From assembly GCA_046563655.1 (NCBI GenBank), contig CM102289.1:5146001-5210000 (forward strand): a stretch of 64,000 bases of DNA, in the 5' to 3' direction. Shown in pieces: positions 12,549 through 38,613 of the stretch. A program made the position numbers and the translations under genes. The stretch's first letter is position 1. Every line of letters starts with the position of its first letter. The notes under the pieces are model-generated. The model was not told where the DNA came from. It saw only the letters and a program-made list of their open reading frames with translations, and searched no databases. Origin of the DNA: Yuukianura sp. NJ FZ-2021 (lineage: Eukaryota).

Positions 12549-15500
12549 TTATCCAAACTCTCCTACACCAGGAATGTCCGGAACTTCATAGTCGGGTACT
12601 TCCGGAGGAGTGTCGGGTCTCCTTCGGGCACAAACGGAACAGCGACTGATTCTGGACTCGTGAGATGCCTTGAGTGTTTGTTGTTCTGGGCGGTTAAATT
12701 GGTTGTGTTCGCCCACTGTTGCCAGCCAATAGGAACTCGCCGTGCTGAACAAGTTACATCTTCCTTGGCCGATGCACTCGACGAATGGAACGGGTTTGAA
12801 TTTTTCTATACATGACCCTGGCGAAGCCAACGGTTGACCTCCACCTTCAGCTCCTGCGTCGGTATGCTGCAAAAACACCTCGAAAATTCAAAATTTTGAA
12901 AACTGAGTTACTTTAAAGATAATTTTTGAGTTTACCATCATAAAACTGAATCCAGTCCAAAGAGAGTACCATCCTGGAGGACAGTCTGGAATCTCAATGG
13001 TTTGACTGTGAGTTGCAATGACATGAGTAGGAGCTTCACAGACTGTGCACCGTGAAATGTAGCGTTTAATATCTAGTCCTTGAATTGGCATCATCATCAT
13101 CGGAAGGGGTTCAAAAGTAGAGAGCCAGTAGCTGTAGTCATTGCGAGAAGCGTAGTTGCAAACGTTGTTCAAATTGCAAAACAGAAATGGCATGGTGGAA
13201 AATTTTCTCAAACAGCTTCCAGGAGCACCTTAAATTGATTTTCAACAAGATTTTATTTTCCAAATATTTTCTTAGTTTTCCCTTTTATTTTGAGCTGACC
13301 TAAGTCTTGACCTCGAGCCTTCCCATCTCCGGTCAAATGAAGCAGTGAGTAGCCCGACCACATTTTGTTGCTTCCTCTTGGACAGTCAATGTCACCAGTA
13401 GATTGCGAATGGCGCGTGAAGTAGTAACCACGTGACTTGGGCGGAGGACCTGGCGGAGCAGCGTCACCTTCCATTCCTTCTCGTCCAGGAAATCTAAAAA
13501 AAAAATTAAAAAAAAAAATAAAGAAAATGATTTCAAAAGAGTGAGTGTATGATTTACACATTACCCAGCTTCACCAGGCATGCCAGGACTTCCAGTGTCA
13601 CCTTGCATTCCCTTGGATCCAGGAAGGCCTGGAAGACCGTCTCTTCCAGGAAATCCGTCATCGCCTGGTAGGCCAGCGAAACCGTCTGGGCCAGGAAGAC
13701 CAGGCTGGCCGGGTCTTCCTAAAGTAAAAAAAAATATTTTAAAAAAGTTGTCTAAAATTTTTTTTGGAACTGTAACTTGAAAAGTTGAAGTATTACCGCG
13801 TGTTCCTGGTTGTCCTTTGCCAGTTCCAGGAGAATATCCAGGAAGACCTTGGTCACCCTTCTCACCATCAAGACCTATTGAATTACAATTTTAGCAATAC
13901 TTAACTTATGTAAAAATGTTAATTAATTAATTAATTTTTAAGTTAGCCTGTGAACCTGGAAAGCCATCGTCGCCTGGAACTCCTTTTGGACCGGGCGAAC
14001 TTAATCCAGGAAATCCGTCATCGCCTCGAAATCCCTTTTCACCTATCAGTCCGGGTTGTCTAGTAATAGTTTTAAACAACAGACTTAAGTAAATAGCTCA
14101 ACAGTTGACCTTTGACCTAAGAAGGCTTACGACGTCCCGGGGTCACCTCTAAGACCTTTCAGTCCTGTAAATTCAACGCCAAAATTAAGTGCAAACAACT
14201 TTAACCACGCAGTTTTCAACTATTTTTCAACTAATAGTGTAGTATAGTTTTCAACTATTAAACAATAATTTCAACTTTCACTTCACCTGGGAATCCAGCT
14301 CGCCCAACTGGGCCTGGTTTGCCAGGAAAACCGGGCCTTCCAGGAATACCTAACAATTCAAAAAAAAATTGAATAAATTTTGAATAAAGTTTAAAACAAA
14401 CTAAAATTTCGAAATAACAAAATAGCTTTAGGATTGGCCAGCTTACCCGGTTTTCCGGGAATCCCTGCAAAACCAGGATCACCCCGTTCGCCCTTCGGAC
14501 CAGGAAATCCAAAATCTCCTAAAATTAAACAATTTGAAAATCAGTTACTTTACAGAAAACTTTTAAAATTGTATGTAGTACTTGAGATTTATTTTGAAAA
14601 AAGAAGCTAACCTGGAGCTCCCTTAGGCCCGTTAAAGCCCCACCGTCCCTGTTTTCCTTCTGGACCAATGTCACCTTCATCGCCTCTGCCCAAAAGCGGT
14701 TTTGCTAAAACAAGATTTAGTCAATATTTTTTTAAATAGTTTCAAAATACTATAAAAAATATTTCAAAATACTGAAAAGTAATTCTTCTACGACTTACGA
14801 GCTGGTACAGCTGGTTCACCCACCTCTCCTGGCGGGCCATCGTAGCCTGCACTTCCAGGAAAGCCGTCAGGACCGGGGTCACCCATTATCCCTGTTAAAA
14901 TTTAATTTCTAATTGTAGTTCACCTCTACTATTAACAGATATGATGAAATCATTTTATGATTTAATCGAACATCTTCCAATTTTTAAGGCTACTTAACCT
15001 TTTGGCCCATCCGGACCAGGGAAACCGCGGTCGCCCATGTCACCAGGAACGCCCTTTCTCCCTGTTCAACAATTTGTCGGTAATGTTGATGTTTCAGAAC
15101 CAGGGTATCTTTGGTTTAAACAGGCTGTTTTAAACGTTTTAAACACTTGTTTAAAACAAGCGGTAAATCTTGTTTTAAAAAAATGCAAAGAAATGTTAAA
15201 ATTACGTGAAGAATTGACAAAATTATAGGGAAAAGCGCTAAATTTTCAGGAATAATAAAGATAAAAAAGTTTTGGCGGAATACGTTTTACAAAACGTTGC
15301 TAAACAGGTCACAGATAGCTTTTCCAACACTTAGCGACGTTTTATGGAACACGAGTGCCAGTTATCGCACCACTTATTTTGGCGATCATATGCCTCAATG
15401 GGTTAAATGTAAAAAAAACATTTAAAACGAAAAAAGAACGTTTAAAACACACAAAAAAAACATGTTTTTTTTTTGCTTAAAAAAACATGTTTTAAGGATA

Positions 15501-18500: not shown

Positions 18501-21500
18501 ACCAGCAGGACCCTCCAGGCCAGGCTCGCCCTTTTCGCCGGGGATTCCCTTTGGACCACTTTCTCCGGGCAAAATGCCCAGCCCGTTTTCACCCCGTTCT
18601 CCCTTGGCACCTAAGAAGAACATTCATGGCGGAAATTCAAATTTTGAAGATGATGCTAAAAATTAAAAAAAAGAACAAATTACCCGGGCGTCCATCGATA
18701 CCGTCAGCCCCTTTGAGACCAGGAAGACCTCTCCAACCCGGATCTCCAGCCATTCCCTAAACAGTTGACACATTATATTTAAAAAAAACAACAAAAAACT
18801 ATTGACACATTATATTTAAAAACAGACAAAAAATTTAATACTTGATTATTGACACTTACAGGATAGCCCTTAAAGCCGATGTCCCCTTGGGGTCCAACAA
18901 CCACGTCCCCCTTTTCTCCCTGTGGCCCTAAACACAAAATTTAAAATTGGCGGATTTTGATTTTTGCCGGTCAAAAGTCAATCTCACCTGGGAAGCCATC
19001 AAAACCAGCATCTCCGTCCGGACCAGGCAAACCCCTTAACCCTGCGTCAGTGGTAAAAATTTGAAGATTTAAAAAAAAAAAAGTCCCCCGCAAGGTTTTC
19101 GAAATCTAATTTCATCTTACCGCGTAAACCCATGTCACCCTGCACTCCCTTTTCTCCGATTTTCAGAAATTCGCCACTGTCTCCCGGGTCACCTACAAAC
19201 GCCGGTGGTTAAAATGAAGACGGAGAAAGTATAACGTAATAAACTTTACCTTGCAACCCACGATCTCCCACATCGCCAGGTAAGCCACTGTTTAACAAAT
19301 TTCGAAATTTCAAACATAGAAGCCACTTTCAAAATAATGAAAATATTTTACGGAAATCCTGGAACTCCTCTGTCACCACGCAGGCGTTCTGGATTGTTCA
19401 GAAACTCGGATGGTTGACCTTTTTCGCCCGGCATTCTTCAAAATTAAACCAAATTTTCAAAATTACAATTTCCTTTATGCTTAGTTAGGCTCAAATCTGA
19501 AACTAAAATGAAACAACTGAAAATATTCTACCCTGGTGATCCCGGTCTAGCATCTCTGCCGGGAGTTCCAAACTGTTAATCAGAAATCGAACTGATGTAA
19601 TTTCGCAACTAATTAAATTGAGCATTAATTAACATGCACAAGTACTAACCTCGCCAGAAGCGCCTTTCTCGCCCTTGGGGCCTTGCGGCCCTTGGTCACC
19701 CGGTTTGCCAATTTTTCCGACGGAACCCCTCGGGCCATCCGGGCCAGGGTAGCCCTTGTCACCGACGAAGCCTTTAGGTCCCATGATCACTGTGATTTCA
19801 GGAAATATCACAATTCCAGCTTCGCCCTTCTCCCCGGGGGAGCCTGCCAAAAAAACAGCAACCAAAATTTTGAAAATGAAACCAGTTTTTTTGAAATTTT
19901 GATTTAAATCACCTGCCAAACCGAAAAGCCCGTCTCTTCCTGGTACACCGGCGTATCCTGCTAAACCTTGCTTGCCTCTATCACCTTTTGAAAATTTGAA
20001 AAATTCGAAATTTGAAAAAAAAATCTCTCATGCATTTGTTGAATGTTTTTCTAGCTCAAATTTGTGTGTGACCTTTGGGCCCACGTTCACCAGGAAGTCC
20101 AGGAGCACCAACTATTCCAGGAAAACCAGGAATTCCTTCATCCTTAGAATAAACAAAAATATCAGAATGGCCGTTTCAAAATTCAAAATTCAAAATCATA
20201 CTCCTCTCTCGCCCTTGATTCCTGGAAAACCAGGAAAACAGGTTCCACAGTTGTCTCCAGGTTTGCCTTTGGGTCCAGGAACTCCGTCGAGGCCGTCAAC
20301 GCCATCATAACCAGGGTCGCCGGGAAAACCTTAGAGAAAGTCATATTTTTTATTTGTTCATTAATTATTATTATTAATTAATTTTCAAATTACCGGGTAA
20401 ACCAGGTGGCCCCGGTGGTCCTATTTTGTCTACACCAATTCCGGGATAACCCTTTGGTCCTGGAATAAAATAAAATTTTTGAAAACTGATTCGAAATGGT
20501 AGAAATCTTAAAAATCTACCTTCAAACCCAATGTCACCACGTTCTCCAGGCAGACCTGAAAAAAAGTTTGTAACGTACAGCGTAACGTAATATAACCATA
20601 ACGTAACCTTAAAATTTTAAAAAATAGCCCTAAATATGTTGTCAAATAGGGTAAAGTTGTTTACCTCAAATGTTTTTAAATGGTGTTTAAAACATGGTTA
20701 AAACACTTGTTTAAAACAACAGCAAATTTTTGATTTTGAACTGACAACAAAACGAGAAAACGCTCTAAAAATTCGGAAAATTGCCAATAAAGGTACAGAA
20801 AGTTGGTGTTTTTGAGCAGTTTTTACAACAATTTTGACATTGTGCTCATAAATACAAGTCTTTTTGTTAATGTTTCTACAATAATCCTTTAGCTGCTTAA
20901 TCCGACATTGAATTAGTTCCAATTAAATTGAATTATCGATACATCTAGAAATTTCATAACGTCAGGCGATTGTTAAACTCGTTCTGGGACAAGTAAACTG
21001 GGCACTTTGCGACTTAATTGCTTATGCGTGCAATGTGCAATCGTGAAATAAAAAAAAATTAATAGAATAAAACGTTTTAAACAAAAAAAAACATGTTTTA
21101 AACAAAAAAAAACAATTTTTGTTTAATTTTGAACATAATTTTCTTAAACCCTGTTGTCAAACCTGGAAGTCCTTCGCGACCGGGAAAGCCATCCAAGCCT
21201 GGTGGACCAATGATTGTAAGACCAGGAAGTCCCTTCATTCCAGTAGGACCTCGTGGACCAGGCACTCCGGGGAAACCTTTTTTAAAAGTTTAGTTTAAAA
21301 AAACTAATCTGAAAAAAACTTAGAAGTAGAGTACTTCAAATCTAACCTGGAATTCCGTGCTTTCCTTGTAAACCACTGGCGCCCATTTCTCCCTTCACTG
21401 AGCGTCCGGGCGGGCCAGGTCTTCCGTCTTCTCCGGGAGGTCCGGGAAAACCTAGAATTAGTATATTAGAATTAAGCATTTGTTTCAACACAATTACCCT

Positions 21501-24500
21501 AAAAAAAATAAAAGTAATTCCGACCAGGTTGTCCAGGAAGTCCCCACAAGCCATCCTGTCCCTGATTGCCCTTAGGTCCTGGATAACCTTGGTAACCAAC
21601 TGGGCCTTGACGACCTTGAACCCCCTTAGGCCCCACCCCACTCTGGTTCTCTTCCTCCAGAATTTCACCGGGAAGCCCTGCAATGTGTTTTATTTACGAT
21701 ACTATTTTTAGATTTTTCTTGTTAGCCTTAGCCAGCCTAAGAGTGGGATTCGAGACTAGTGCTCACCTGTCACCCAGTGCACCCAAACACAGATGGGCAT
21801 AAATTAAATAAACTAATTTCAAAATTACTTTTAAAATTATTTAAAAATCTACAAATTACTTTTAAAATTATTAATTAAATTTAAATTAAATTTTATTAAT
21901 ATGAAATAATTTTTTGATATCGTTTTTTAGTTGTATTTTGGTTTTCACGAAAAATACAACTAAAAAAACAGTAAAAAAATTATTTCACATTAATAAAATT
22001 TAATTTAAATTTAATTAATAATTTTAAAAGCAATTTGTAGATTTTTAAATAATTTTAAAAGTAATTTTGATTTATGTTAGTAATAAATTAGTAATTTATG
22101 CCCATCTGTGTTTGGGTGCACTGGGTGACGGGTGAGCACTAGTCTGCAATCCCGCTCTTAGGCTGGCTAACAAGAAAAATCTAAAAATAGTAGTAAATTC
22201 AAAAGCAATTTACTATAGTAATTGACAGCCTGAATTTCACTCACCAGGAAATCCTTGGTCACCAGGAATACCTCTGCCTCCAGGATCGCCAGGGTCGCCC
22301 TAAGGTAAATTTTAAATAAAGTTTTACATGCGACAGTTTATATCGAATTGGTTTTTTAAATATAATTTGGTATTACAGCAGCACCGTTGCTCCCGTCTGT
22401 GCCAATGTAACCCGGGGCACCTTTTTGTCCTTTTCTAAATTGCGGGTCAAATTTGAAATTCGAAATCTGTTTGTCTTTGGCTGTTTTACTTACGCTCCGG
22501 CAGTTCCTGAATTTCCGTCACGCCCTTGCTTTCCCCTAGCACCATCGTATCTGTTCCAAAATTTAAAATGTCACTCGGTTTTATTCATAGTCAAAAATGC
22601 TACTATAGTTCTGAAACTCCTTACCCTTCGTCACCAGGAAATCCCTTGTCACCAGGCATGCTACACAAAAAGTACAAAATTCAATTTAAATCTTCAAAAA
22701 TTGGAAATCTCTGAGATCAATTTTCTTTATAATATCACCCTTCGCTGCCTGGCAATCCGTCTGGACCACGAAATCCAGGAAAACCCTGTATGCCTTTTTC
22801 TCCTACAAAATATCACCAAATTTTATCACCTAACTTGGGACAAATTTTAGTTTCAAAAATCCACCTTTCATTCCTGTTTCACCACGAGGTCCTTTAGAGT
22901 ATGTTGTGTTGCGTGGTCGGGTCGATGGCCTCAACCCTGGAGGTCCTGGAAATCAAATTTTCTCACAATCAGTTGAAATATAGTCAGCGGAGTACTATGT
23001 TGAATAACATTAACGTTAATGCTACGAATTTTTAACGTTATGCTGTCCAATGTCAGTGTAAGTAACTTACCGGGATCCCCGATGTCACCATACTCTCCCT
23101 GCAACAGTGAAAAGGTGAAGAAGTGCTAAAAAATGTAGAGGCATATTTTTACCCGTGGTCCTTTTGGACTCGGCTTCACTTCGCCAGTGTCTCCCTTCAA
23201 ACCTTCACAAAAATACATACAAAACATTGTCGTTTTTTGCATAATTCGCACAACATGTAAGATTTCTGTGCTCACCAGGAAATCCGGGTTGTCCAGCAAC
23301 TCCATCGTCACCGGGTTCACCAGGTCGACCTGTGTAAATCATTGAATTAAAAACTTCCTCTATTTTCTCTGTCAAAAAATACAAACCTTGAATTCCGAAT
23401 TGGCCACTGTATCCAGGAAAACCTCGAGCTCCTAATTTCAAAATTGAAAAAGGCTTTGACATTTTCTTCTGTTCTTGCACAACACTCGTAAATAAGAAAA
23501 TAGTTTTTTTCTTTAACAGGTTAGGGACTAAGTTTGGTTTTTTTATTGTTTTCCCAACAAAATTGAAAAGATGATAAATTAATTACGGTAGCTGTGATGT
23601 AGTAGTTGAATGCAAATTTTTAACTCAAATAAAGTCAACTACTTCAGAGTAAAATCAGTGCAAAAAATGTTCGCAACGACATTTCTGGAAAACGTGACTA
23701 ACCTGTTAAAGATAACTATTTCGTTGCTATAGGAACTATAGGTTTTTGCACATCGAATTTGTACAAATAATTTTTTCTTGACAAACCTATTCTTCCTAAA
23801 TCGCCTCTGTCTCCCTTGATTCCAGGAGAGTTTATGCCACCGTCGCTATATTAAAAAATTGACCTTTGACACAAATCTGAATTTATTAAAAGAAATTAAT
23901 GTTACCCAGCTTCTCCTTGGAGTCCTTCCAAACCTGGAGTTCCGTCTGGTCCCCTTAGAACAAAGCATAACGATAAGTTTTTCTTAAAAAAAAAGTTAGA
24001 CTAGCGCATGCGTACCTTGGTCCAGCAACTCCAGGAAACCCATCGGTACCATTGCAACCAGGAATACCTTCCAAGCCGGGCGGACCTAATCTCAGAAAAG
24101 ACAGTTTTGTGCATGATGTCTGGAGATTAACCCTGACGGCGTATGTGCTTCTATATGTTTTCCTTGATCCACTTACCAATTTCACCTTCGCTCCCGGGAG
24201 TGCCCGGAAGGCCAGCTAAAATTCAAAGCGAAAATGGGTCCATGCCATTACATCGAAAAAAAGACATCGAAGGAAAAGACATCGGAGAAAAAGACATCGA
24301 CAAGAAACACATCGAAAATATATTTGTGCGTGCAGTTTCAGTCTAAAAATGAAAACTTTAGGTTTGGCGTAGGTTAGGTAAAGCATGAATAGTGATTGCG
24401 TTTAGGTTAGGATAGTGAATGCGTGAGTAGGTTTGGCTGACTGAGGTTAGTTTTCGATGTCTTTTGTTTCGATGTGTTTGTATTTTCGATGTCTTTTCCT

Positions 24501-32025: not shown

Positions 32026-35000
32026 TCAAGTTTTTTTGACGAAAATGTCAACGCTCACAAGTGCCTTTTCGTCTAAACAAGTTTGAATCCAGTTTTCATG
32101 GACAATTGGCAGCGAAGAGTTGACCGTAGAAGGAATGTCATGTCCATCCAAAATCACTAAATGTGTTGCTTCTGGAGATGTCCAGTCTTCCAGAACTTTG
32201 CCTCCGTAAAATTCCACGGCGGATTTGTATGCTTGATGAACAGTTGGGATGAACCCAATTTTGCAATTTTCAAAAATTGACCATCGCGAGAAACCTCTGT
32301 CCTCTCGTCGAAGTTGACGTTGAACGTACTTCTTTAATTTGGCAAAATCGTCTCTACCAGCCGCCTTTTTTGAGTCTCCTTGAATCACTTTTTCCAACAA
32401 TTGTTTCGTTTCCGGAACAGTAAGCTTGTGGGTATAACTGTCTCCGTAAATGTCAAAATCTTTTACAAATGATGCCTTTGTTTCTTCAGTTGCAAACAGG
32501 AGATCCAATGGGACAAAATTTTGGATTTCGTTTGAACTGATGCATCTGTCAACCCATTTCGCTCCATCCAGAACCTCCCATTTGCCAAGATTCATTTTTC
32601 GTTTGACGGGTTCAGTTAGTTTTTCAGCAACAATTGCACAAGTATCAGCAGTTGGATTCTTCACGACTTCAGCTCCATGATTTTTCAGTTTTTCTTCCAT
32701 CTGCGTTTTCCAAGTAGAAGTTCCGATAACGTTGAAAACTTTTCCCAGGAACAAATTCGATGATTCCACCTTGACAGCATTTAGACGATTACTTTCAGCC
32801 ATAACTTTTGATTCAATTTCCTTAATTTTGCTAGGAGAGATGTAGATGGCTCTAGTCTTCTTAGTAGCTGCAGTTGATGATGCATTTGGTTTTCGATGAT
32901 AGAATCCACGGCTACTTCCAGCAACTTCATCATCGGAAGATCCATGTTCAAACTTGATGGGTGGACCCCAATCAGTTTTGGGGTATTTGGAATATGAGTG
33001 ACCTGGAGCATTCCCACCTCTTTTTCCCGTGACCATTTTTCCTTGTTTGCAAGATTCACGCAACTTGTGGAACTCTGAAACTGTCATGGCCTCGTACCAT
33101 GACTTGTCTCTTCGTACTCTTGAAATTACTGGAAAGCGGAGGGCGTAGTTGATATGGTAGTCTTTGCTGGGATTAATTTCTGATGCGTTAACTTCTAAAA
33201 CGACGGACTCGTTGGGGTAAATGAGAACGTCTGGACGCTTTCCTTTGTATTTAATGGCTGGAATGTCTCGTGTTACGAAATGAGGTTCCAGAGATTCTAC
33301 TAGAGCTGCCAACTCGTGATGCTTGAGTCTTCCACAACCAACTTTAGCAATTGGGTAGACATCCTAATTTTAAAAAAATCGTTACAGACATCAGAATCGG
33401 TGTTTTATGAAAAAATTGTGAAGTGTACTACCTCTCCGTCCAGAACGCCTACGACAAGGCTAGTGATTGTTCCGCCTCTTCTGGAAGTGTCAGCATAATA
33501 TCCACCAACAATCAGCAAATCCATGTCATCCACGCGGTAGCCTTCGACATACTGCAAAGAAAAAACAAGGTCAATATATTTTTTTTTCTAAAATTTTGAA
33601 GTAGAATTACTTCGGGTTTCAGCTTGAGCCAATTAGATTTTCTCTGCCCAGGCTCGTATTGTGAATGTTGATGCTTGATCACCACGCCTTCTTCACAATT
33701 TTCAATAGCTTTGTCTAGCAACTGTATAACTCCTTCTAGGTTGTCACACTTCTGCTGATCGCTGATATAGTAAACTGATTCCTTCGGCTGAAGTACTTCC
33801 TGTAGAAGTTCCAGTCGCCTAGCCAATGGTTCATGACAGAGTGAGTCTCCGTTTAAGTAAACCAGATCCCAGGCGACATAAGCAGGACAATGTACCGTAT
33901 CACTCTCAAGTAGCGTCTTGACATCCATACTCTTTCCTTTGGCAGTGAAGCTTTTGTTCCTAAAGTTATACGCCATCATTTCCCCGTCAATTACAAACGA
34001 ATCAACTGAAGAATACGAAACGAGCTGCTTCTGGAGTCTTGGTGTCAGCGTTTCATTAAATTCTTTGTACTCGAATCCTCCTCGTGAAAAATACTTGAAG
34101 ATATGTGCTTCCCCACGACCACCACGTTGAAAATGGATCTGAAACCTCTCTCCGTCGAACTTTGTTTCAACTAAAAATGGTGGTGGAGGCAGAGTGATTG
34201 GATTCCTCTTGGATTTGCTGATGATTACTTTGTCAGCGTTCTCATTGCCCCGGCCGCTTCGAAGGTCCAGTCTGGTGCAAAGCATGGGCTTGAAATAGGA
34301 GAAGAGAAACACTTTTCCGGTTGGAACGTCAGCATTATCAGGGTCGTTGCAGACTTGACAAACCTGGAAAAATTATAAATAAGGTAGAATAACAACAGAC
34401 GCAATTAGTGTAACACTTAAGACTTCAGAAACTGTATGTTTGTGGGTACCTTATGGAGGCTCATCGTATCCAAAAGTTCCTTGGCTTTCGGGTGAAGCAA
34501 TCCGAGGATTGAGGACTCGTTTATACCCAAGTCCATTCTCTTCAAAATAATTTTTGCTAACCACTTTCCCTCCAACGCTCCCAAACGTTGGACTAAACCT
34601 TGCAGAATGGTGACTTGCATTTCTTGGGTTACTTTTGCTTCTTCGTCACCTTTGTTCTTTGCCAATTGATCCAAAACTGCGTGAAGTTCTGGAACCAAAA
34701 ACACAAACTTTGAATGTGCCAGAACCATTTTTAACGTAGCCAAAATTAGTACCCTTGCGAATAATGCCTTACCGCTTATTTTCGGACTTCTTTCGGGATC
34801 ACTATGCGAACTTCTCGTACCGAGTACTCTGAAGATTACCAAAGCTATGTCTCCTGCGGCAACCTCCCCGACGATTGCTGGGTTTTTGTAGTTGAGCAGT
34901 TGCTTTCCATCGCTATCCGTCGGACTAATCTTGTGAATTTTCGCAAACACACGTCCCATCACAACATCTTTGATTCCAAACGAAGATCGTTCGCGATCCC

Positions 35001-35341
35001 AAGTTGGACACAGCAATCGAACAATGGAGAAGATACTGTCACCCTAGAAAGATCATTACAAAAATTACTTGGTAAATTTTCACTTTACCATCTCTTTGCA
35101 ATTCATCGACATGTCAATCTTGAGCACTCAAGCATCTTACATGAGCAGCTTCAGAATCAAGGTGTCCATGTAATTCTCTGAATTTCCGACGATAGTGGTC
35201 AAAATATCTTTTGATCCTGCTGTTCTTTTCATCCCTATCTTTCGTAGTGGACACTTTCTCCAACATATTGACAAAATCGTAGAATGGAATCATTTGTGAC
35301 ACAGTTTCTTCTGCTGCATCTTCTCCGTCAACCTCCATCAT
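32026..35341 (-). CDS. LIG4: DNA ligase IV (NHEJ)
   Basis: DNA-binding domain (PFYDFVNMLEKV, DRERSSFGIK), adenylation motif ETKFDGERFQIH, IDGEMM, EEGVVIK, WLKLKPEY, OB-fold LRFPVISRVRRDK, and tandem BRCT domains with the XRCC4-binding linker DIYGDSY. Multi-exon. Confidence 0.96.
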
Positions 35342-35893
35342 AGCGTTGCGTATTCGTACCAGCACTACGTTAACCAACCTACGATCGATTCACTTTAATT
35401 AACTATGAAGATGATGATGAACTACGACTGTATGTAAGACTGGAAGAAAGTTAAAGTGCTAATCAAAATCGAAATACACAGCTGATTGAAGGGTACGTGC
35501 CTCTTGTCACTTTCACCCCCTATTGGTACACTAGCCGGGCAAGGGGCAACCCTACGAAGAAGAACAAAAGGAGGGAAACAGCAACAGCAGTCGATGATTT
35601 TAGATACGAATACGATCAGATCAGCCGCAGTTGGCTTGGCAGGCAGCCGAAGGAGCCGACTTGAGTATAACTTAAAACTTCTTCGAGTGAGTGTAAAGTG
35701 CGTGTAATAAATTGGATTCGGGATCTTTTTCTTTGATAAACCACTTTGTCGTCGGAAGGGAATGTGCATATTACATAATTCACACTTATGACGGTGACAA
35801 CAACGATAGCGGGCAAGGTGCCATCATCTGTTTGAAAGACTGCAAGTGGATTGGCTAAAGATAATTGAAATTAGATAAAGTTAAGGTGTGAAG
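35342..35893. promoter_or_regulatory. Probable bidirectional promoter/5' UTR region shared by LIG4 and MBD2/3
   Basis: The divergent start codons are only about 550 bp apart. Promoter function is inferred from geometry alone. Confidence 0.5.
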
Positions 35894-37270
35894 ATGGACA
35901 GACGGGGAATGGTAATGGGACAACCACTTCCAACTCACCTCATCCCAGAAACACCAATTAACTCCTGTGACCCAGTTCAGAACAGTCTCACCCTCCCGCC
36001 TGGCTGGAAGCGACAGGAAAACGTACGACCCACTGGACTCTCTGCGGGAAGAGTAGATGTAAACTGATCACAAATAATACTTTAACTTTCTGTCACTAAA
36101 CTTGCGTTATGCTAATATTCATAATGTATTTGTTTACAATTAACAGGTGTACTACGTCAGTCCTGACGGCAAAAAGTTTTGGACAAAGCCACAGTTAGCG
36201 AGGTACTTTGGAGATTCCGTGGATTTGGCCAATTTCGATTTCCAATCTGGACGATTTGTACAACCGCTAACAGGAAGTCTCAAGCGATCAAGGTTAAATT
36301 CATCTGCCATTGAGTACAGGTATTGCAATAACGCATCCAAAAATTAACTGCTAGATTGGATTAATATCACGTTTTCATTTATAGCACAATGAAGACTGAT
36401 ACAAGTCTGCTGCCCCCCATCCGACAAACGGCGTCCATTTTTAAACAGCCGGTGACTGTGGTTAAGACGCAAAAGAGTCGAGTGAAAATGGATTTCAAAC
36501 ATGGAGTGCAAGAAAGCCCACGACAGGTACTTTTGAGACACTAATAAACTGAATTGGATTAAGTATAATATTACGTAATCATTAACATTAATAATTTGTT
36601 GGCAGTTAATTTATGGTCGATTCACTTTAATTACAGCTGTTTTGGGAAAAACGTCTTCAAGGGCTCAGGGCCTCTGACCCCTCAGGATCTGTTCTGTCAC
36701 CGTCTGAACTTCCGCAAGGAATTGTACCAGCCGGACCTCACATTGACCCTGACACTGTACTTCACTCTATTGCGACGGCCCTGCATTTGGCAACTCACCC
36801 CATCACTGGTCAATCTGGCGACCGAGCGTCAATTGATTCAAATCCTGGTGTTTACATCAACCCAGATCAACCATTAATTCATGTAACAAATTCGCCGTTG
36901 ACTTATCATCACTGACAAGAATCATTTCTGAACAATCTTTATCTTGCTAAAATCATAGGAAATCGCTGTCAGCGAAGATGACATCCGTGCACAGGAGGAG
37001 AGAGTTGGTTTTGCTCGAAAGAAATTGGAAGAGGCTTTGCTGATGTTCTACCCCGGGTCCATTACCCGAACTGACCGTGACATCGTCACTGATCAAGACA
37101 CTGAAACCTGCAATGTCGCTGGTAAAGACAGCTACGGCACAAAATCTGATACCAGCGGCGGCGCGGGAACCATCCGTTCCACATCGAATCCTCAAAAGAA
37201 ATTGAAGCTGTGTCAACCGAGTGGTCAGACTTTGGTAGCGCCTTCATTTGGTCATTCCCAGCAGCGCTAA
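35894..37270 (+). CDS. MBD2/3: Methyl-CpG-binding domain protein MBD2/3 (NuRD subunit), 5 coding exons
   Basis: LPPGWKRQENVRPTGLSAGRVD|VYYVSPDGKKFWTKPQLARYFGDSVDLANFDFQSG, PPIRQTASIFKQPVT, PRQ|LFWEKRLQG, NPGVYINPDQPL and the coiled coil VSEDDIRAQEERVGFARKKLEEAL. Confidence 0.96.
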
Positions 37271-38613
37271 GTGAGTTAACTTTTAGTTTTTTAAACTGAT
37301 CAAAAAGCTTGTATTATTTTTGAATAATAATTTCTGTTCTTCTCTTCAGTAAAGCATCACAGTACCCAAAATCCACTTCCGAAGAGTTTCAATATCAACA
37401 CTTCTCAAGTAAACTAAAAATGAAGTCCGAAGCCCTTCGTAACTCACTTCAAATCAATCCTATTCGTAGTCGCGTACGATTTGAAGCAAGTGGATCGAAT
37501 TCGCGTTAGTACCCGTAATTATAAGTTAATAATTAGCTTTCGCCGACTCTTGTCAACTCTTAACCACGCCCCCATTTTGATTTTTGTACACGACTATCTT
37601 ATTCTACAATTTTGTATTTGAGTTGTTAGTTTTTATGTGACGTTTAGCCTTTAGACTTTGTTGTAAAACAATGTTCACTCCAATCTAAAAGTATTCTGCG
37701 CAGTTTTAATCATTCTACTTATTATCAACAACATATGACTCCGAAGACAACCACAGCCTGATCTTGTAATTAGTTGTACTAAATTTTGATTTAAAACATG
37801 TTTTGTATTCTAAAACAAAAGCGGTTTAGGTGAATGTGATTTTAGGGTTGATGATGCTGCTACGATGCCGTTGTCTTCGGCGAAAGCAGAGGAATGGCCT
37901 ACATTGGTGGTTTGGGTTATTGGATGCACGGGTCTTGGACTCGTACGGAGTGCTTGGATACGAAGTGAAAGGTTCCTCTGCTGTTGATTTGGTTTTGGTG
38001 GAAGAATTGAGGGCGAAGTTGTGTTTTGTGAATGGAAGTTTGCATTGTACTCTCTGCACCTCGTACAATCCCCGTGCAAGTGGCGCTCAACATTCCGTTC
38101 TAAGGTCACACAGACCTTGAGTCGCAGCAGCAGAACTGCCAAAGGGGCGGAGCCAACTACCGACACACCCACCCACCACACAACTATACCGTATGATTTA
38201 TTGCAATTTCTGTTTACAGATAAATAAATGCTACAGTAAATATTAATATATTTAAATAAACTAATACTTTAATTAAAGTTGACACTGTTGTTGAGTGTAG
38301 CTTGTTTTAGTAGTGAAGTAGATTAAATGTGAACTTTTAAATAGGAATTTTTTAATTTCCGGCTGCTTTCTGCCTCGCACTCTTCTCCCTCGCTTCGTGT
38401 CGATCTGCGATATAAAAATGAAGTAGTTTTCGTAACTTTTTTTTTCTTTTTTGCCTTTTTGCGTTGTAAGGTTGATGTAAAAAGGGTGAAGAAGCGCAGT
38501 CGTAAAGTATTTGGAGGGAATTTTACAGATTGTAAAAAGTGTTAAATTTAACATTGAAAGTTTGCGAGTTCGAGTTACGAGAGTTTTACTGCGATTCGGG
38601 AAAGGTTTTGATA

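Follow-up and report, generated by a model that had tools for sequence, protein, structure and literature searches.

Introduction

MBD2/3 is the ancestral link of DNA methylation to the NuRD remodeller. The fate of the protein after the loss of 5-methylcytosine (5mC) is known mainly from flies, in which the MBD fell apart. In an MBD that is selective for mCpG, two arginines, the arginine fingers, pair with the two guanines of symmetric mCpG (PMC5240623). A role of an MBD tyrosine in methyl selectivity has also been described (PMC5240623; 10.1101/338061). According to bioRxiv 10.1101/338061, the mutation R166A in the first finger of human MBD2 abolishes mCG binding, and R166 is the major contributor to binding. 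In the same paper the mutant R188A reportedly retains comparable mCG binding, the second finger is the flexible one, and MBD domains are stated to accept TG as well, as an mC mimic. For MeCP2, a preprint describes binding to unmethylated CAC/GTG and an R111 whose rigidity is due to a salt bridge to D121. Mutants of MeCP2 R133 are described there as binding mCG and mCAC and as losing unmethylated CAC/GTG.

Springtails (Collembola) have been reported to be without DNA methylation. DNMT1 and DNMT3 were not found in seven springtails by Provataris et al., Holacanthella has neither DNMT1 nor DNMT3 and a unimodal CpG o/e (Wu et al.), and no 5mC was detected by EM-seq in Allacma fusca (2026 preprint). 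A literature search on springtail MBD2/3 or springtail methyl-CpG reader residues found no publication on this point; springtails are not mentioned in PMC8821070, and PMC8330077 contains nothing on reader residues. The MBD2/3 gene described here was found in a 64 kb stretch of DNA, referred to as the window, and encodes a tryptophan at the position normally taken by the second arginine finger.

Results and Discussion

Structure of the MBD2/3 gene and its surroundings

The gene was located at 35894-37270 on the plus strand. It consists of five exons, every exon border is AG/GT, and the frame of 345 codons is open. The exons are listed below.

35894..36058, plus strand: exon 1; the start codon is followed by an N-terminal extension and, beginning with L35 at 35996, by the first MBD half; phase 0 end at a GT donor
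36147..36319, plus strand: exon 2, 173 nt, with the remainder of the MBD, whose last residue is F91 (36252-36254), and then a linker
36385..36526, plus strand: exon 3, MBDa region (Pfam PF16564, 57.8 bits)
36637..36882, plus strand: exon 4, main part of MBD_C (Pfam PF14048, 57.6 bits)
36959..37270, plus strand: exon 5, end of MBD_C (PF14048, 29.6 bits) and coiled-coil stretch (about 36959-37039), C-terminal tail of about 75 residues, stop codon at 37268-37270

MBD, MBDa and MBD_C were found by Pfam in this order, which is the domain arrangement of the MBD2/3 group. The MBD (PF01429) is split by intron 1, and the two pieces scored separately: 18.8 bits for the exon 1 piece, below the cut-off of 21, and 26.1 bits for the exon 2 piece. 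The MBDa region of exon 3 is the p55/RbAp-binding region. The coiled-coil stretch lies within the Pfam match to MBD_C and is conserved in L013, a metagenome locus that is described below; it is predicted to bind GATAD2/p66. Judged by its domains the gene is MBD2/3, and its product would be the bridging subunit of NuRD.

The coiled coil is followed by about 75 residues of C-terminal tail (37040-37267). None of the insect MBD2/3 proteins seen has such a tail. Because it shares conserved blocks with L013, the tail is regarded as coding.

Isoforms without the second half of the MBD were seen in insects, namely in Thrips (P0002 versus P0005) and in Lycorma (P0083 versus P0089). An in-frame isoform without the tryptophan-bearing exon was considered for the window gene and rejected. 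Skipping of exon 2 causes a frameshift with a stop five codons on, and simple exon skipping therefore cannot give an isoform of this insect type in the present lineage. A word-index search with exon 2 against longer proteins resulted in 24 candidates, none of which obtained a score.

A DNA ligase IV gene is located at 32029-35389 on the minus strand, head to head with the MBD2/3 gene. The two start codons are about 0.5 kb apart, which suggests a bidirectional promoter region shared by the two genes. Collagen-like Gly-X-Y runs were observed elsewhere in the window in long open frames at 13256-13890, 19632-20027 and 21345-21708, as read from the ORF list only.

Tryptophan at the second arginine finger

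The residues of the MBD that are of importance for reading of mCpG, together with one unusual neighbouring position, were assigned as follows.

36026..36028, plus strand: Arg45 (CGA), first arginine finger, corresponding to human MBD2 R166; retained
36050..36052, plus strand: Arg53 (AGA), a position with Lys in all 38 unique full MBD segments compared; Arg in L013 too
36056..36058, plus strand: Asp55 (GAT), conserved Asp of the DVYY motif; retained
36150..36152, plus strand: Tyr57 (TAC), methyl-selectivity tyrosine; retained, versus Phe in human MBD3
36180..36182, plus strand: Trp67 (TGG), at the site of the second arginine finger (human MBD2 R188, MBD1 and MBD3 R44, MeCP2 R133); peptide GKKFWTKPQL

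In the initial annotation of the window a TGG codon at 36180-36182 and the peptide GKKFWTKPQL were reported, and both were borne out by the letters and by the translation of exon 2. The residue had also been equated with MBD1 R44 and MeCP2 R133. Phmmer searches against PDB chains aligned Trp67 with the Arg of GKKFRSKPQL in human MBD2, which is R188 (query 1-40 to 177-216 of the 411-residue chain 7ao8_C), and with residue 44 of MBD1 (query 2-40 to 34-72 of 1d9n_A). MeCP2 R133 is equated with MBD2 R188 in a preprint. These results agree with the earlier assignment of the site as the second arginine finger.

Of the sequence features of an mCpG-selective MBD, the second arginine finger is absent, with Trp67 found in its place, and the remaining ones are present: R45 with its Asp partner D55, and the selectivity tyrosine Y57. 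The earlier statement that the first finger, the Asp/Tyr and the NuRD-binding parts are intact was likewise correct, as R45, D55 and Y57 are present and MBDa and MBD_C were both detected by Pfam. Besides the Trp, only five departures from residues conserved to at least 80% were counted over 60 gapless MBD columns. The pair of changes diagnostic of an MBD3-type domain (Tyr to Phe and Lys to His) was not found, since Tyr57 is retained and the Lys is replaced by Arg53. The domain also differs from the degenerate Drosophila type: no gaps were present in the 60-column consensus alignment, and P0121, a relative with the same Trp, was modelled as folded.

Reality of the TGG codon

TGG at this position could be an assembly error or a rare allele. 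Contigs of four public runs were compared over 35850-37350, and three of the four (X1, X2 and X5) cover the site; X4 gives no cover. The X1 contigs are identical to the assembly but may be the source of it. X2 is from the same sample and represents a second haplotype, with one contig over the whole stretch and 34 other letters. X5 is labelled as organism B; its one contig spans 36011-37277 and differs in 48 letters. Among the differences listed, no change was observed at 36180-36182 in X1, X2 or X5, those particular to X5 apparently running in position order to 36338. A synonymous A>G was observed in the very next codon, at 36185, in both X2 and X5. The base of the initial annotation was thereby upheld, as neither CGG nor AGG is listed at the site for the contigs of the three runs or for L013, which carries the identical TGG. 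No point in favour of an error or a rare allele was found. The contigs for which no change is listed include those of a divergent haplotype and of an organism with another label, and such an explanation can hardly be right.

The coding differences listed were synonymous in 8 of 8 cases in X5 (organism B) and in 9 of 12 cases in X2. By this pattern, the MBD2/3 gene is under purifying selection. Introns 1 and 3 of X2 (36090-36130 and 36530-36640) showed many substitutions and small indels, with few changes in the exons, and the divergence within this one sample was about 2.3%.

Conservation of the second finger in other MBD2/3 proteins

The arginine of the second finger had been described as invariant, and this was contradicted by the library search. 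Searched exhaustively by phmmer with exon 2, the library yielded 149 hits, in which the residue at the site was Arg in 128, Asp in 6, Trp in 5, Lys in 4, Glu in 3, and Gly, Cys and Thr in one each. A residue other than Arg was thus present in 21 of the 149 hits, and in the sequences compared the arginine is highly conserved but not invariant. Among flies, Asp was found in Glossina and Musca and Glu in Anopheles, and Drosophila MBD2/3 has E71 at the site (PMC5240623). The pentatomid bugs Nezara viridula and Halyomorpha halys (P0119, P0248 and P0269) carry Asp, and the ostracod Darwinula stevensoni (P0250) carries Cys.

One of the five Trp hits, P0121, is a 107-residue MBD2/3 transcript fragment from a more distant relative; it contains GKKFWTKPQL and had a local score of 187. 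The other four were rejected as orthologues, with local scores of 61-66 compared to 187 for P0121. The Trp hit P0122 was found to be a protein of a deltaproteobacterial MAG, and not an orthologue.

A springtail clade with a variable second finger

Orchesella cincta MBD2 was the best named match of exon 4 (62%). An exon of the neighbouring DNA ligase IV gene had its best match in Orchesella dallaii DNA ligase 4 (32% identity, E 6e-55; the next match had 2e-16), and the best named matches were Orchesella species for both of the two genes tested. A careful tree was calculated from 35 MBD2/3 rows. It placed the window within arthropod MBD2/3, in a clade with Orchesella cincta MBD2 and seven environmental sequences (bootstrap 94, SH-aLRT 98), the members of the clade apart from Orchesella being environmental sequences. 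The window and L013 were joined with a support of 100/100. On these grounds the animal is very probably a springtail or one of its near allies. Eight members of the clade bear an MBD, and at the site three of them have Trp (the window, L013 and P0121), three Lys, one Leu and one Arg. The three Trp forms were joined in a quick tree (SH-aLRT 85), and the careful tree gave no resolution inside the clade. The annotated Orchesella cincta MBD2 (P0001, 162 aa) starts at the MBDa region and is without an MBD.

Metagenome contigs were scanned for further loci. The scan resulted in 26 loci, with the site readable in 14 and the motif unreadable in 12; the contig of P0121 itself was not among the 26. In the 14 readable loci the site was Arg in eight, Lys in three (all AAA), Leu in one (CTG), Glu in one and Trp in one. 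In L008 (Leu, CTG) and in L001, L006 and L011 (Lys, AAA), of the Orchesella clade, the MBD is contained in one exon, whereas that of the window gene is interrupted by an intron between VD and VYY.

It could be argued that the genome has two MBD2/3 paralogues, the Trp form and, at another place, a canonical copy with the usual function. One metagenome data set contains both the Trp-type contig L013 and the Lys-type contig L011, the positions of introns differ between the two types, and the unresolved interior of the springtail clade would leave room for two copies. L013 and L011 may, however, come from two species, and the other forms in the clade are mostly without the Arg too. No second copy was found in the searches run, and a single Orchesella cincta protein was present among the 120 matches listed. 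Furthermore, a single MBD2/3 is general in invertebrates according to PMC5240623. A pair of paralogues is considered improbable.

Age and conservation of the tryptophan

L013 was found to be a whole orthologue, with the same start, the same five exons, TGG at the site and conserved blocks in the C-terminal tail. The alignment of orthologues that had been proposed along with the initial annotation thus gave TGG in L013, and Trp in P0121. A comparison of the window with L013 over 326 codons resulted in a pS of 0.76, which is saturated, and a pN of 0.18. In the MBD 50 of 59 residues were identical and pN was 0.09, and the identities were 40 of 46 residues in exon 3 and 68 of 82 in exon 4. By these figures the MBD is as constrained as the parts of the protein that bind NuRD. 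Tryptophan has a single codon. Trp67 looks to have been selectively kept, because a site free to change would not be expected to be unchanged at saturated synonymous divergence.

The fold was studied on P0121, the Trp-bearing relative, which was folded in place of the spliced MBD of the window using AlphaFold2 and a 46-row alignment. The model had a pLDDT of 82-88 across the MBD core and fitted human MBD2-DNA structures to within 0.5-0.8 Å over 59-62 columns. The Trp-type MBD is predicted to fold like MBD2.

An explanation for the Trp could be neutral decay, in which the site would drift after the loss of 5mC, the Trp would be a functionless accident and the MBD would persist only to give the NuRD subunit a structural spacer. 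Such drift would agree with the variability of the site, which is W, K, L or R within the springtail clade and D or E in flies, and the MBD of Drosophila is known to be unstructured and without DNA binding although the coiled coil still works (PMC5240623). It is difficult to reconcile with a single-codon Trp that is identical in the window, organism B and L013 despite a pS of 0.76 and is also present in the P0121 protein. The conservation of the MBD, equal to that of the NuRD-binding parts, and its predicted fold are also against a mere spacer, and decay of this kind seems quite unlikely. At the level of sequence, the comparisons demonstrate that the change to Trp67 is real and fixed, that it arose within the springtail MBD2/3 clade, and that it has persisted from then on in an MBD of otherwise canonical sequence.

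Methylation and the role of the second finger

CpG o/e in the window was 0.88, compared to 0.98 for GpC. In 63 long ORFs, which are stop-to-stop frames and not verified genes, the mean CpG o/e was 0.86 compared to 0.95 for GpC. These values agree with a methylation-free lineage, but 64 kb cannot settle the point. The Trp had earlier been suggested to mark a lineage with lost or reduced DNA methylation. This suggestion stands in so far as it fits the best named relatives of the window, springtails, which are reported to lack DNMT1/3 and, in the case of Allacma fusca, 5mC. It does not stand as a mark of recent change, as the Trp is present in L013 at saturated pS and the clade also has K, L and R at the site. 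Nor is the link between loss of the Arg and loss of 5mC a clean one, because pentatomid bugs and Darwinula are also without the Arg.

The MBD had further been proposed to be uncoupled from 5mC by a point change, which does not follow from the replacement. Trp alone is no proof of 5mC blindness, because MBD2 R188A reportedly keeps mCG binding at a comparable level and MeCP2 R133 mutants bind mCG. By analogy to these mutants, the Trp form might still read mCG or TG.

A domain of this kind could even have remained a base-specific reader. A TpG or (m)CpG step would then be recognized by Tyr57 and by R45, held by D55, while the Trp would stack on the neighbouring base of the opposite strand, and NuRD would be aimed at TG/CA-type or asymmetric sites without 5mC. 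R45, D55 and Tyr57 are all kept, purifying selection on the MBD is strong in this presumably 5mC-free lineage, and the Trp is preserved across saturated synonymous divergence. In human MBD2 finger 1 alone reportedly carries the binding to mCG and mCA/TG, with R188A still binding (10.1101/338061), and the reported binding of TG by MBD domains as an mC mimic and of unmethylated CAC/GTG by MeCP2 is of the same kind. One shared new specificity is, however, difficult to combine with K or L in the sister lineages. The reported loss of CAC/GTG by MeCP2 R133 mutants also indicates that the second finger is needed there for the unmethylated motif, and a base-specific reader is on the whole unlikely. 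Similarly unlikely is the notion that the Trp-finger MBD is a re-tuned reader and not a relic, which, with finger 1 and Tyr57 intact and a selected Trp on the other side, would recognize an asymmetric step free of methylation, such as TpG/CpA, or another modified base. If true, NuRD would receive a sequence-based address in animals without 5mC, and the K and L forms would be alternative solutions.

The reading preferred here, with a probability of about 0.62, is that the second finger was swapped for Trp after the loss of 5mC, that the role in NuRD was kept, and that the constrained MBD has a methylation-independent role which includes the Trp. A lineage that loses DNMT1 and DNMT3, and with them symmetric mCpG, would no longer have use for the job of the second finger, which is to pair with the guanine on the opposite strand. 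Springtails could then have exchanged the finger for K, L or W and flies for D or E, and the protein would continue as a NuRD subunit. The MBD would act without methylation, with finger 1, Tyr57 and the backbone in contact with DNA or chromatin. A lineage-specific contact, now maintained by selection, would come from the Trp.

Comparison with known systems

Compared to flies, springtails would be a cleaner natural experiment on MBD2/3 after the loss of 5mC. The MBD is predicted to be folded and is constrained, and with finger 1 and the Tyr preserved, the exchange is confined to the second finger. One subclade has Trp there, which appears to have been kept by selection thereafter. Flies replace the same residue, which suggests that the second finger is lost before any other part. 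A role of the MBD without methylation is thereby made testable. The gain is modest, as both the loss of methylation in springtails and an MBD2/3 without the full set of reader residues, in flies, have already been published.

The closest described system is MBD2/3 of Drosophila melanogaster (Cramer et al. 2017, PMC5240623). It is a single NuRD MBD2/3 in a lineage without DNMT1/3, the second Arg is replaced (E71 in the fly), and the NuRD-recruiting coiled coil is kept. Unlike the window protein, the fly protein has F61 for the Tyr, a loop insertion of 20 residues and a helix deletion of 9 residues, and its MBD is unstructured and shows no DNA binding (PMC5240623). The MBD of the window aligns without gaps and has kept R45, D55 and Y57, and an MBD2-like fold is predicted for the Trp relative P0121.

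Mammalian MBD3 is also a NuRD subunit, and its methyl selectivity is weak due to point changes in an otherwise intact fold (PMC5240623; 10.1101/338061). The changes are different ones, however. MBD3 keeps both Arg22 and Arg44 and has Phe34 at the Tyr and His30 at the Lys position (10.1101/338061), whereas the window protein keeps the Tyr, has Arg for the Lys and has Trp for the second finger. In human MBD2 R188A and in MeCP2 R133C and R133A the equivalent position is mutated. These are engineered or Rett-syndrome alleles, with no Trp variant described in the text available, in contrast to the fixed natural state of the window. A likeness in function may be found in planarian MBD2/3, which according to PMC3824064 is required independently of DNA methylation.
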